This document shows positions 22,269 through 27,492 of a DNA stretch of 32,000 bases, piece by piece. How positions within the stretch are numbered: the first letter of the stretch is position 1; each line of letters begins with the position of its first letter. A model generated the notes under the pieces. It did not search any database and had not been told where the DNA came from. It saw only the letters and a list, made by a program, of their open reading frames with translations. The position numbers and the translations under genes were made by a program. Source of the DNA: Candidatus Heimdallarchaeota archaeon (lineage in GTDB: Archaea; Asgardarchaeota; Heimdallarchaeia; JABLTI01); NCBI GenBank assembly GCA_030614005.1, contig JAUWKS010000013.1, positions 1 to 32,000 on the forward strand, read 5' to 3'.

Positions 22269-22502
22269 TTATCCGCCCTCTGTACGGGCGATTAGATATA
22301 CTTTCTCATAATCGGTGATTCCGACTTCTTCAAATGTTTCGTTATCATCAAGTTGTCTTCCACGGAAAACAACTATTACCGCGCTAGCTGGAATTCTCTT
22401 CTGCCGTGATATTTCCCTTTTCAATTCAGCAATAGTTGAATTAGGTTTCACTTCACAATCGATTACTCCTCCACCAATCGCGGATACAACTCTTACAATC
22501 AT
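22269..22502 (-). CDS. Ubiquitin-like protein (eukaryote-type Ub fold, exposed C-terminal GG)
   Basis: 77 aa; TIAELKREI, VVFRGRQLDD, VYLIARTEGG parallel Ub/NEDD8 patterns; AGGTGA SD upstream. Confidence 0.9.
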   Translation of the reverse strand: MIVRVVSAIGGGVIDCEVKPNSTIAELKREISRQKRIPASAVIVVFRGRQLDDNETFEEVGITDYEKVYLIARTEGG

Positions 22503-22621: not shown

Positions 22622-23383
22622 TTATTCAATTACTATTGCTTTTTGCTTATTTATTAAAGCTCCCATTAATCCCCCACCGAAGCCATTATCAATATTTACT
22701 ACTGCAACATTTGGTGCACAGCTGTTTAACATGGTTAGCATAGCAGAAATCCCTTTCATATTTGCCCCATAACCTACAGATGTTGGAACAGCGATGACAG
22801 GGCAAGCAGCAAGCCCGGCAACAACAGAAGGAAGCGCACCTTCCATACCAGCTATTGCTACAATAGCATTCGCAGAGAAAATTTTATCACGGTAATGAAG
22901 CAAACGATGAATACCAGCAACTCCGGCATCATAGATTCGAGTAATATTTGCGCCCATTATTTCGGCTGTTAAAGCAGCTTCTTCCGCAACAGGAATATCT
23001 GCTGTACCACCGCAAATAATCAATAAAGAACCAACCTTTTTTCTTTGGATTCTATCAAGATAAATGATTCTTGCTTGGGGGCAAAATTGTAAGTTTTTAT
23101 CAACCTTTTTCAATTCGTTGTAAATTTCTTCAGTTGCTCGGGTTAATAGGATATTCTCATTTCGTTCGCTAAGAGAAGCGTATATACCCTTGATTTGTTC
23201 TAATGTTTTACCTGGACAATAAACCACTTCTGGAAAACCTTTCCTTAAAGCTCGATGATGATCTACTTTTGCATAACCAAGGTCTTCAAAAGGGAGATCT
23301 TTGAGTTTAGCTACTACAGTATCAAGAGAAACGCGATTTTCTTTATATTCTTCCAGTAATTTCTTTAGTTTATTTTGATCCAT
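22622..23383 (-). CDS. larB: Nickel-pincer cofactor biosynthesis carboxylase/hydrolase LarB
   Basis: VDHHRALRKGFPEVVY, GTADIPVAEEA, DAGVAGIHRL, AGMEGALPSVVAGL, PTSVGYG, VVNIDNGFG. Confidence 0.93.
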   Translation of the reverse strand: MDQNKLKKLLEEYKENRVSLDTVVAKLKDLPFEDLGYAKVDHHRALRKGFPEVVYCPGKTLEQIKGIYASLSERNENILLTRATEEIYNELKKVDKNLQFCPQARIIYLDRIQRKKVGSLLIICGGTADIPVAEEAALTAEIMGANITRIYDAGVAGIHRLLHYRDKIFSANAIVAIAGMEGALPSVVAGLAACPVIAVPTSVGYGANMKGISAMLTMLNSCAPNVAVVNIDNGFGGGLMGALINKQKAIVIE

Positions 23384-23424
23384 AATTTTTTCACCTTGAA
23401 TGTAATTTTCAGACCAGATTGTAT

Positions 23425-24228
23425 CTACTTCTGAGTTTTATTCATTGAACCTTTCTTGTATCCATTTAAATCCAATGTTGCATAATCGAAACCAATTTCT
23501 TTAAATCTAGTCATTATTTTTTCAGCATTTTCAACAAGTATTGGAAAATCAGCGGGGGATACTTCAACTCGAGCAAGTAATCCATGAACTCGGACACGAA
23601 GTCGAAGAATATTTAATTCCTTCAAATATTCTTCTGCTTGATAAACCATAGCTAACTTCTCTTTCGTTATTTTCTCTCCAAAGAAAAAGCGTGTAGCTAA
23701 ACAAGGAGATGAGGGTTTATCCCAGCAGGCTAGACCAAGCTGTTTTGAAAACAACCTGATTTCTTCTTTCGTTAGCTGGGCATCGATTAAGGGACTTTTA
23801 ACAGAGTATTCTTGAACTGCCTGATAACCAGGACGATAATCATCTAAATCATCGAAATTAGAACCTTCAATGAGTTGTCCAGAGATTTTGTGTGTTTTGC
23901 AATATTGTTGTATAGCTTCTATTGTACCTTTCTTACAAATATAGCATCTATCTGGAGGATTGTCTTCAAACCAGGAATAATCCATTTCTGAAGTATCAAT
24001 AATCAAATGTTTTATTCCAATATCTTTTGCAAGAAGTTTTGCTTCTTCGAGTTCATGACTTGGAAATTGGGGTGTATCTAGCGTCAGAGCAATTGCTTTA
24101 TCGCCTAACACATTAAAAACAACTTGAGCTAAAAAAGTACTATCGACCCCTCCAGAGAAGGCAATTACTACCTCTTTCATTTCTGCAAGGATCAAATCTA
24201 ATTCTTCTATTTTATTTCTTTTATTCAT
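23425..24228 (-). CDS. larE: ATP-dependent sulfur transferase LarE
   Basis: PP-loop AFSGGVDS, RCYICK, GSNFDDLDDYRPG, WDKPSSPCLATR, RLRVRVHG. Confidence 0.93.
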   Translation of the reverse strand: MNKRNKIEELDLILAEMKEVVIAFSGGVDSTFLAQVVFNVLGDKAIALTLDTPQFPSHELEEAKLLAKDIGIKHLIIDTSEMDYSWFEDNPPDRCYICKKGTIEAIQQYCKTHKISGQLIEGSNFDDLDDYRPGYQAVQEYSVKSPLIDAQLTKEEIRLFSKQLGLACWDKPSSPCLATRFFFGEKITKEKLAMVYQAEEYLKELNILRLRVRVHGLLARVEVSPADFPILVENAEKIMTRFKEIGFDYATLDLNGYKKGSMNKTQK

Positions 24229-24251: not shown

Positions 24252-25478
24252 TTATGGTATGGCGAAAGTAAAGTTAATTGTCTTTACATCATCCCATGTC
24301 TTGCCGAATTTATTGTCTAAATGGGCAGTTGCTGTTATAGTGTACTCTCCACCATCAATTAGCAATCCATCTTCTACCCAAGCACCGATACTCATAGTTT
24401 TTTGTCCCTCGAAATTATACACAAGCGCCCAACCACCTTCACCCAGAACTTCACCACTTGTTTGGTTAGTTATTGTTAAAGTGAAAGATTGAAACCTTTG
24501 ATGCCAATGTCCTGGATTATTTATGGTGACTTCTGTAAATACAAACCAATGTTTCCCTCCAGTTACATCATAGGAATCTGTTTTATTGTAATCTAGATCA
24601 ACAATTCCTAAATGAGTCCCCCAATTAGCATCTAAAGTGTCTACTATTGGAACTAAAATAATAAGCCCGAGGACAATACCAGGTATAACAAAATGTTTCT
24701 TTTTCACTACTTTTTGATAGAAACTTCTCGAAATTTCCGCGAAGGTTTTTTCTCCATTCGAATCATTAGCTTCCTTTTTGGCAGTCTTTTCTTTAGAACC
24801 AGTTTCATCTCCAAAAACTTTCTTATCGTCAAAAACATCCGACTCTTGTTCTTCTTCGTCTTTACCCGTCATACTGAAAACAATGGATGCAAGGAAAACA
24901 ACACCAATAACAACTATAAGCACAGTTCGACCACTTGAACTTTGGAAGTAACTATAAATCCCACCTAGGTAGGGAATTCGACCAACAATTTTACCAACAA
25001 CTCGATCTTCGTGTATATTTAATTCATCAATTCTAATGAATTGAATAAATTCATCATTGGTTAAGTAATTATCACCTTTCGTAGTGAACCAGTAATCACC
25101 AGTTCCATCTTGATACACACGAGTCACCCTATGGACAATCGGGACGTCAACATCCTCTGTGTGATTTATATAATTAAAGACGATTGCATCTCCAACTTTT
25201 ATGGTGGATGGGTCTACTCCTCGAACAATAAGCATATCTTTCCTGATGTCATTTTCTCCACAAAATTCTTCTCTATTTGAACCCCAGTAAGATGGTTCCA
25301 TAGATTCACTAGTAACTACAACGAGTGGAGAGCTTGTATGCAGGAATACTCCTAGAACCTGATTGAAAGTAAGAACTAAGATTACAGCAACAATGATGAA
25401 GAATCCTATTTCAATAATGTCTTTTCTCCAAGTAGTTTTACTTTGTTTTTTAGAAATTTTTTCTGCTTTTTGTGACAA
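24252..25478 (-). CDS. sec11: Signal peptidase I (SEC11/ER-type) with extra TM and beta-rich C-terminal domain
   Basis: VVVTSESMEP (catalytic Ser), PIVHRV (His), TKGDN, VVGKIVGRIPYLG; ~200 extra C-terminal residues; TTG start. Confidence 0.9.
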   Translation of the reverse strand: MSQKAEKISKKQSKTTWRKDIIEIGFFIIVAVILVLTFNQVLGVFLHTSSPLVVVTSESMEPSYWGSNREEFCGENDIRKDMLIVRGVDPSTIKVGDAIVFNYINHTEDVDVPIVHRVTRVYQDGTGDYWFTTKGDNYLTNDEFIQFIRIDELNIHEDRVVGKIVGRIPYLGGIYSYFQSSSGRTVLIVVIGVVFLASIVFSMTGKDEEEQESDVFDDKKVFGDETGSKEKTAKKEANDSNGEKTFAEISRSFYQKVVKKKHFVIPGIVLGLIILVPIVDTLDANWGTHLGIVDLDYNKTDSYDVTGGKHWFVFTEVTINNPGHWHQRFQSFTLTITNQTSGEVLGEGGWALVYNFEGQKTMSIGAWVEDGLLIDGGEYTITATAHLDNKFGKTWDDVKTINFTFAIP

Positions 25479-25606: not shown

Positions 25607-26161
25607 ATGAAAATCGAAGAGGCAATAGATGAAAAGCATAGCTTTATTCTTGTTGGATGTAATACCGCTAAAGAAAGAGATGGCATGAGTGAGTTGTGGC
25701 ACGTTCTAATAAAATATTGCAACATTGACCCTATAGAAGCATTTGAGCTGCCAATAAGAGGTCTCTATCTAATAGCCATAACAGAAAACCCCAAAGAAAT
25801 TGTTGCAGCAATAGGTTCAGTTGCCAAAGAGAAAAAATTCGATTTTCAAATTAGTAGAAAATTTATTCCCATCAATGAAATGATTGAAGGCTCTTTGGAT
25901 TATCTTGCAGAAAGAATCACTCCTTACCTTGAAAAAATACCTAAAAAAGCTCAATGGAGAATCACAATAAATAGAAGACATACCAAACTGAAAAAGGCTG
26001 ACATTATTGAAAAAATAGCTCTTTTACCTCAAGCACCGAAAGGCAAAGTAAACTTATCTAACCCTGATTGGGAGATTATCATAGAGGTTTTTGGTAGGTG
26101 GATCGGATTTAGTGTTTGTCCCGCAAATAGTGTTTTTAAAATCGCTGAAACTGAAGTTTGA
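25607..26161 (+). CDS. Stand-alone THUMP domain protein
   Basis: RKFIPI, WRITINRRH, KVNLSNPDWEIIIEVFG typical of THUMP. Confidence 0.85.
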   Translation: MKIEEAIDEKHSFILVGCNTAKERDGMSELWHVLIKYCNIDPIEAFELPIRGLYLIAITENPKEIVAAIGSVAKEKKFDFQISRKFIPINEMIEGSLDYLAERITPYLEKIPKKAQWRITINRRHTKLKKADIIEKIALLPQAPKGKVNLSNPDWEIIIEVFGRWIGFSVCPANSVFKIAETEV

Positions 26162-26180: not shown

Positions 26181-26798
26181 TCATTTCCAAATATTAAGTA
26201 AAGCTGATTTTTCAATCGCTATTTTCTCTATTATTTCATCTCGAGAGTTTTTAGTTTGGCGGAGAAATAACTGTATTTCTTTCTCAGCTATTTCGAGGTT
26301 TGACAAAATTTTCTTTTCATTCGTCATTGAAAAATCACTAACATCTAATCGGAAATTAGTATATTCAATATTTCTTGTTTTCAGGAATTCTTCAAAATCA
26401 AAAAATCCTTCCTTTGAAGGAGAGTGATTCTCCTCTGCTTGATTTAATTTGATATGCAAAGTTATTACTTCTTTGGATTCTATATTTAAGCCAACTTTTT
26501 CTATTGCTTTACTAATCTGCCTATAACCTGATAAATAGAGCAAAATTTCTGTATTCAATGTTTTAGCTAGATTATTTTTTTGCTTAAAAGCTTGCAATGA
26601 ATAATGTATACATGCTTTAAGATGTTGAAATCCCGCAACACTTCCAGAATCGATAATTAGAAGGTAATTATGCTTATCAAGCAATTTTTTTTCTGCTCGG
26701 ACCAGTTCCTTTACCATTTCAATGATCTGATTACTGGAGAATTTTTTTGTAAATGTTGCAAGAGAGATTTCTATCTGATGTGAATCTAACAATATCAT
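26181..26798 (-). CDS. cgi121: KEOPS complex subunit Cgi121
   Basis: VAGFQHLKACI, NLAKTLNTEILLYLSGYRQISKAIEKVG, AIEKSALL. Confidence 0.92.
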   Translation of the reverse strand: MILLDSHQIEISLATFTKKFSSNQIIEMVKELVRAEKKLLDKHNYLLIIDSGSVAGFQHLKACIHYSLQAFKQKNNLAKTLNTEILLYLSGYRQISKAIEKVGLNIESKEVITLHIKLNQAEENHSPSKEGFFDFEEFLKTRNIEYTNFRLDVSDFSMTNEKKILSNLEIAEKEIQLFLRQTKNSRDEIIEKIAIEKSALLNIWK

Positions 26799-26904: not shown

Positions 26905-27492
26905 GTGAATAAGATGTCTGATAATATTATTGTCTTTACACCCCAAAATATCTGGGATAAATTATTTGATTTAGCTCAACAAATCAAACAAGCAGATTTC
27001 ACTCCAGATGTTATTATCGGGATACTTAGAGGTGGGCTAGAAGTTACACGCACATTGAGTGATTTACTTGAAATAAAGCAAGTATCTACTTTTGGTGTAG
27101 GATTTTACAAAGGAATAAATGAAACTCTCAAGGAACCACAACTCACACAGGAATTGCTCTATGACGTAAAAAATAAGCATGTTCTATTAGTGGATGATGT
27201 TGTTGACACCGGAAAAAGTATGGCTTTTGCAATGAAATATCTGGAAATGAAAAAAGTTAACACCTATAAAACTGCAACTATTCACTATAAACCACAAGCA
27301 ATCTATAAGCCAGATTTTTTTGTAGAAGAAACATCAAATTGGATCGTCTATCCATGGGAGTACGTTGAATTTTCAAAACTATTTATTAGCAAACAAAGGG
27401 CCAATAACAAAACCTACCAGCAAATAGCTATTTCTCTTAAAAAATTGGGTATTCCAAAAAAAGTAGTTGATGATATTTTACCTGAAAATTAA
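26905..27492 (+). CDS. Purine phosphoribosyltransferase (HPRT/XPRT-like)
   Basis: IGILRGG, VLLVDDVVDTGKSM, WIVYPWE. Confidence 0.88.
   Translation: MNKMSDNIIVFTPQNIWDKLFDLAQQIKQADFTPDVIIGILRGGLEVTRTLSDLLEIKQVSTFGVGFYKGINETLKEPQLTQELLYDVKNKHVLLVDDVVDTGKSMAFAMKYLEMKKVNTYKTATIHYKPQAIYKPDFFVEETSNWIVYPWEYVEFSKLFISKQRANNKTYQQIAISLKKLGIPKKVVDDILPEN

Follow-up and report, generated by a model that had tools for sequence, protein, structure and literature searches.

A Heimdallarchaeal signal peptidase I fused to a beta-sandwich domain that may act as a built-in accessory clamp

The stretch of DNA analyzed here, a 32,000-nucleotide window from a Candidatus Heimdallarchaeota archaeon, carries on its minus strand (24252-25478) a single open reading frame of 408 codons plus stop, with a TTG start, in which a SEC11-type signal peptidase is continued by a third transmembrane (TM) helix and a beta-rich domain. 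The question raised by this gene is what the second half of the protein does for the first, and whether it is related to SPC22/23 (SPCS3, yeast Spc3), the accessory subunit with which SEC11 is associated in the eukaryotic signal peptidase complex, as an initial annotation had proposed. The architecture is that of SEC11 plus a type II TM/beta-sandwich protein, just as described there, and with moderate confidence the product is considered a one-chain signal peptidase whose second half serves it as an accessory clamp, a functional analogue of SPCS3; a specific relationship to SPC22/23 has so far not been borne out.

The N-terminal half is established by its sequence as an archaeal/ER-type (endoplasmic reticulum-type) signal peptidase I, and cleavage activity is predicted. 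Residues 26-198 score 64.3 bits against TIGR02228 (sigpep_I_arch) in an NCBIfam scan, above the cut-off of 51.85, and match human SEC11C (E 9.5e-11) and SEC11A (E 1.7e-09); S59 (SESMEP), H116 (VHRV) and D136 (KGDN) are invariant among 34 homologues, in boxes that align with those of SEC11A/C, and the SEC11 core with its C-terminal TM helix is complete. Enzymes of the archaeal/ER type (MEROPS S26B; TIGR02228) have a catalytic histidine where the bacterial enzyme has a lysine. Homologues start with methionine at the position matching the TTG codon. Because a genome-wide search (at 90% completeness) found no second signal peptidase I, this one is the housekeeping enzyme and no spare paralogue. 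The close family has a 13-residue insertion behind the catalytic serine box that human SEC11 lacks, and against the archaeal signal peptidase model the catalytic domain of the long, fused enzymes reaches only about 50-85 bits, compared with about 95-125 bits for the short forms of other Asgard families.

The fused form extends well beyond this genome. The 58 homologues retrieved from a database are, with few exceptions, 374-437 amino acids long, and those that are named are labelled Heimdallarchaeota or Asgard, with which twelve named genome loci agree. In the class to which the window belongs, 69 genomes were surveyed, and virtually all of their signal peptidases I lie in frames of 335-567 amino acids. 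The C-terminal domains of distant families were too divergent to be found by a first profile; read by eye, these families have the same architecture and a common W-x3-Y-x-F-x-G-x-K motif. A multi-family profile (A4, built from 20 sequences of about ten families) finds the beta domain in 72 of the 76 genomes that were sampled from the class and also in five families of other Asgard classes (f9, f21, f22, f24, f26), every strong match being situated within a frame of 310-570 amino acids. In the three largest Asgard families the same profile gave only weak, noise-level matches (4 of 163 genomes), and the peptidases of these families occupy frames of 190-250 amino acids. This survey of fused versus split forms, which the initial annotation had suggested, yielded no split form. 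The explanation that two adjacent genes were joined by an error of assembly or gene calling has next to no probability: no supporting point was found, upwards of 80 genomes and numerous metagenome contigs have the frame unbroken, and the apparent short forms that were checked, including those of genomes G068 and G080, stop at contig edges. Unbroken fused frames in dozens of genomes exclude a gene-calling artefact.

No stand-alone beta domain was found by phmmer among 1.84 billion representatives, which returned only fused proteins and fragments plus weak matches to repeat proteins (NHL and Calx-beta proteins), or with the A4 profile and a profile of the TM3-sandwich half (A2) among proteins of 80-294 amino acids (of 5.8 billion), which returned only fragments on contigs of 645-736 bp; these searches reach no deeper than HMMER sensitivity, and a word pre-filter restricts two of them. 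Two copies of the fused peptidase are present in each of the genomes G234, G288 and G145 and in the named metagenome-assembled genomes HM7_B34 and SMAG_U14241; both copies keep the C-terminal domain, so that it was the entire fusion that was duplicated. An in-frame TGA codon is found in one copy of G234 and in the copy of G267. A different elaboration is encoded in genome G004 of family f10 (L034:106-1215 (+)), where the catalytic domain follows a multi-TM N-terminal extension of about 200 amino acids and the C-terminal beta domain is absent.

The segments of the protein suggest how its two halves are placed in the membrane. A basic N-terminal tail (residues 1-21, 25416-25478 (-), with seven K/R by residue charge count) is assigned to the cytoplasm and is followed by TM1 (residues 22-45, 25344-25415 (-)), a 24-residue hydrophobic helix that is placed by model and segmentation as the N-in anchor of the peptidase, and by the extracytoplasmic SEC11-type catalytic domain with S59, H116 and D136 (residues 46-183, 24930-25343 (-)), delimited by TIGR02228, SEC11A/C and the homologue alignment. 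TM2 (residues 184-203, 24870-24929 (-)) lines up with the hydrophobic C-terminal segment of human SEC11C and is probably the counterpart of the SEC11 "pseudo-SP helix", a C-terminal, hydrophobic helix that can cross a thinned membrane (Liaci et al., 10.1101/2020.11.11.378711). The cytoplasmic loop that comes next (residues 204-261, 24696-24869 (-)) had been described as an acidic linker of about 55 residues: it has 58 residues and ends in KKK, but is charged overall (15 D/E and 13 K/R) and acidic in its first half only; it is modelled as disordered, with a predicted local distance difference test score (pLDDT) below 50, and its length differs among families. TM3 (residues 262-282, 24633-24695 (-)), identified by model and segmentation, would be the type II (N-in, C-out) anchor of the accessory domain, which makes up the remainder of the protein (residues 283-408, 24255-24632 (-)) and is assigned by AlphaFold2 and the alignments to an extracytoplasmic, seven-stranded immunoglobulin (Ig)-like beta-sandwich.

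The initial annotation had deduced that the beta domain is on the same face as the catalytic site, and two features argue for this. Basic residues precede TM3 in every family looked at, as expected of positive-inside charges, and the TM2-TM3 loop of a relative in family f2 contains a zf-RING_2 domain (35.4 bits versus a cut-off of 27.3). RING fingers are domains typical of the cytoplasm, in agreement with such a topology. Both ectodomains, catalytic and beta, would thus be outside the cell. The relative in question (L041:269-1807 (+), genome G097) has both a zinc ribbon and a RING-H2 domain in the cytoplasmic loop of a fused peptidase whose backbone architecture is like that of the protein described here, the loop of which is only charged and disordered. 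Frames of 494-567 amino acids also occur in genomes G219 and G297; the long form of G219 (L042) is extended at its N terminus and has a long loop of low complexity instead of the zinc ribbon and RING-H2 domain. The RING-bearing relatives could possibly combine a membrane peptidase with a ubiquitin-ligase module.

The fold of the accessory half was modelled with AlphaFold2 from TM3 and the C-terminal domain alone (34 homologues), giving a mean pLDDT of 88.5 and a predicted template modelling score (pTM) of 0.73. In the model, a single helix leads into a seven-stranded sandwich of 126 amino acids, in keeping with the third TM helix and the beta-rich domain of about 125 amino acids that had been read from the sequence, all of whose quoted motifs are present. 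The top Foldseek match of this model is the luminal domain of TMEM106B (E 4.6e-6), with ApaG, LEA_2 and GH2 Ig domains next in order; in sixth place is human SPCS3 (7p2p_B; E 1.1e-4), aligned over 176 columns including the TM helix with TM-scores of 0.45/0.41 and 12% identity. A full-length model gave a similar Foldseek outcome. SPCS3 is absent from the 50 best VIA-align matches of the beta domain, and the ESM Atlas matches are TMEM106, LEA_2 and archaeal hypothetical proteins. Overall, the closest folds are those of Ig domains of carbohydrate enzymes, TMEM106B and LEA_2, and the beta domain is best described from its model as a generic Ig-like sandwich. SPCS3 is a plausible but undistinctive structural match, because TMEM106B, LEA_2 and GH2 Ig domains fit at least equally well.

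Sequence comparison does not support homology to SPCS3. Pfam and NCBIfam scans of the beta domain gave no family match, and none to PF04573 (SPC22) at E ≤ 10; a Pfam scan of the 34 homologues gave only scattered weak matches to Fn3, CBM and DUF families, again with none to PF04573 at E ≤ 10; the A2 profile matched nothing among the sequences of the PDB at E ≤ 10; and PF04573, searched across 69 genomes of the class, had no match in the peptidase genes and only noise elsewhere. Models of LEA_2 (PF03168) and PF07092 had no match at E ≤ 10 in the beta domain or its 34 homologues, and models of SPC25 and SPC12 gave only noise in 23 genomes that are at least 90% complete, the same as in control genomes. 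A protein-atlas feature search was also tried and set aside, its best values (0.83-0.84, for archaeal hypothetical proteins of 154-167 amino acids) being under the meaningful level.

A domain of such generic fold might be an unrelated surface module, merely tethered to the peptidase and bracing nothing, with a suggested role in substrate capture, contact with an S-layer or glycans, or lipid handling; the identity of the nearest folds and the weak Fn3 and CBM matches in a few members are in its favor. What speaks against it is a predicted interaction between the two halves. When the N-terminal half (alignment A3) was co-folded with the TM3-sandwich half (alignment A2), the interface score ipSAE was 0.80, compared with 0.30 for the best of three controls; in calibration, a score at that mark was obtained for 58 of the 80 solved complexes and for 2 of the 110 mismatched pairs, counts that are only rough here because of the custom alignments. 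Three runs agreed in at least 97% of contacts, with a partner pLDDT of at least 82. The beta-sandwich is thereby predicted to dock on the catalytic ectodomain: the confident contacts are from ectodomain to ectodomain, and no TM-TM contact is confident. On the sandwich side the predicted interface includes W350, Y354, K360, G365 and W367, and on the peptidase side P62, the VGD hairpin (G96, D97), R117 beside the catalytic histidine, the next strand and K134-N137. W350 and G358 are the sole invariant residues of the beta domain in the 20 sequences of about ten families, W350 being the only tryptophan that is invariant across all families, and it is predicted to touch the invariant residues G96, D97 and R117 with an expected error of about 1 Å, among the lowest-error contacts of the model. 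The fold is generic, as in the Ig module without core contact that the initial annotation had weighed against its own proposal, yet contact with the core is predicted.

Further conservation lies beyond the predicted interface. The His-rich loop NPGHWH (residues 321-326, 24483-24518 (-)) and the loop KFGKTW (residues 390-395, 24294-24311 (-)) are invariant or nearly so in the close family, and could be a site for a metal, ligand or substrate. Their position outside the interface would suit a tethered module of independent function. A general module would also be expected in other contexts, and searches of approximately 1.8 and 5.8 billion proteins returned this one in no setting other than the peptidase fusion; because it is found only there and is predicted to dock there, in a confident and reproducible co-fold that is well over its controls and has the cross-family invariant tryptophan in its interface, tethering without bracing is judged improbable.

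The favored explanation, in which peptidase and SPCS3-like clamp are parts of one chain, can be set out as follows. One chain would constitute a type I housekeeping signal peptidase that contains its own accessory subunit. TM1 would anchor the SEC11-type catalytic domain at the outer face, TM2 would bring the chain back into the cytoplasm, the flexible charged loop would connect TM2 to TM3, and TM3 would take the chain out again and anchor the Ig-like beta-sandwich in type II orientation. By way of a conserved strand-turn-strand (W350...Y354-x-F-x-G358-x-K360...G365-x-W367), the sandwich would pack against the conserved VGD hairpin, the strand past the catalytic histidine and the KGDN box of the peptidase, thereby bracing the active site and keeping it close to the surface of the membrane, the role attributed to SPC22/23 (SPCS3/Spc3) in eukaryotes. 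Several points weigh against this explanation. In the close family, conservation in the beta domain is equal at predicted interface positions and elsewhere (0.60 versus 0.60), and the strongly conserved NPGHWH and KFG loops are outside the confident interface. The SEC11-SPCS3 complex has already been solved, so that the success of the co-fold may be due in part to the model having learned that complex. Full-length AlphaFold2 has a pTM of 0.39 and hence gives no independent confirmation of the domain arrangement. Finally, most Asgard and other archaeal signal peptidases function without such a domain.

A separate matter, compatible with function as a clamp because it concerns origin, is whether TM3 and the beta-sandwich are an archaeal homologue of SPC22/23, eukaryotic SEC11 and SPCS3 having arisen by fission in the cytoplasmic loop or the archaeal gene by fusion of two older genes. 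Common descent would account for a topology that matches SEC11 plus SPCS3, for the place of SPCS3 among the best Foldseek matches over both TM helix and sandwich, for the predicted docking on the catalytic domain and for the near-universality of the fusion in a class whose members are labelled Heimdallarchaeota, which have been reported as the closest relatives of eukaryotes (PMC10307638). The specific relationship that had been claimed lacks any PF04573 signal, SPCS3 has a Foldseek rank of six with TM-scores of 0.41-0.45 and no place among the best 50 VIA-align matches, and homology is judged less likely than not. Of the earlier suggestion of a precursor or analogue of the multi-subunit complex, "analogue" is favored, and "precursor" is a hypothesis.

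It is correspondingly a tentative idea, and an unlikely one on present evidence, that the fused gene has retained the architecture ancestral to the core of the eukaryotic signal peptidase. If it does, SPCS3/Spc3, so far held to be born in eukaryotes, goes back to the TM3-sandwich half of a Heimdall-type SEC11 gene that was split within its cytoplasmic loop, and a new eukaryotic signature protein would be added to the translocon-associated machinery. Among translocon-linked proteins, Asgard surveys report Sec61, OST and TRAP and no SPC subunit, and no description of the fused SEC11 plus beta-sandwich architecture was found in the literature searched. A class-wide SEC11 with an SPCS3-like clamp is a concrete, testable candidate for the origin of the SEC11-SPCS3 core; if the likeness is convergent, the SEC11-type peptidase would be one that tends to recruit such a brace. 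The single-chain form could ease structural and mechanistic work on ER-type signal peptidases.

The neighbors of the gene in the window encode LarE-like PP-loop, LarB/AIRC, ubiquitin, THUMP, Cgi121 and phosphoribosyltransferase proteins, none of which has a functional link to secretion. A 77-amino-acid ubiquitin-family protein (22269-22502 (-); PF00240, E 1.4e-13) has a GG end and no propeptide, and the LarB/AIRC-like and LarE-like PP-loop genes (22622-24228) are directly upstream of it. On the other side, a homologue of the KEOPS complex subunit Cgi121 (26181-26798 (-); PF08617, E 1.5e-11) adjoins the genes for the THUMP-domain protein (25607-26161) and the phosphoribosyltransferase (26905-27492).

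Among known systems, ordinary archaeal signal peptidases I (TIGR02228; Sec11a/b of Haloferax and the Methanococcus enzyme) and SipW of Bacillus resemble the N-terminal 205 residues in family, catalytic residues, TM1 and C-terminal TM helix, and end past the second TM helix or sooner; most Asgard signal peptidases, in frames of 190-250 amino acids, are likewise unlike the 408-residue fused form. The luminal domain of TMEM106B and LEA_2 (PF03168) domains have no sequence match to the Heimdall beta domain, and to our knowledge the proteins that contain them have no link to a peptidase. The closest comparison is with the eukaryotic core of SEC11A/C and SPC22/23 (7P2P/7P2Q), which is alike in its Ser-His-Asp catalytic part of the ER/archaeal type, in a type II TM helix with a beta-sandwich on the side of the active site, here predicted to bind the catalytic domain, and in a C-terminal hydrophobic helix of SEC11 that resembles archaeal TM2. 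It differs in consisting of two polypeptides rather than one; the Heimdall sandwich, of about 125 amino acids, is generic Ig-like and without PF04573 sequence similarity, and the SPC12 and SPC25 subunits of the eukaryotic complex have no detected counterparts in the Asgard genomes searched. SPC22/23 of the human complex, a beta-sandwich, "embraces the catalytic core" (10.1101/2020.11.11.378711) and is thought to set the active site close to the membrane, and its TM helix faces that of SEC11 across a lipid window, an arrangement with which the lack of confident TM-TM contact in the co-fold is consistent, although this proves nothing. The C terminus of SEC11C is cytosolic, past a hydrophobic helix that spans the membrane (10.1101/2020.11.11.378711); thus, given also the SPC22/23 sandwich, a cut in the loop of the archaeal protein would give exactly the topologies of both eukaryotic subunits.
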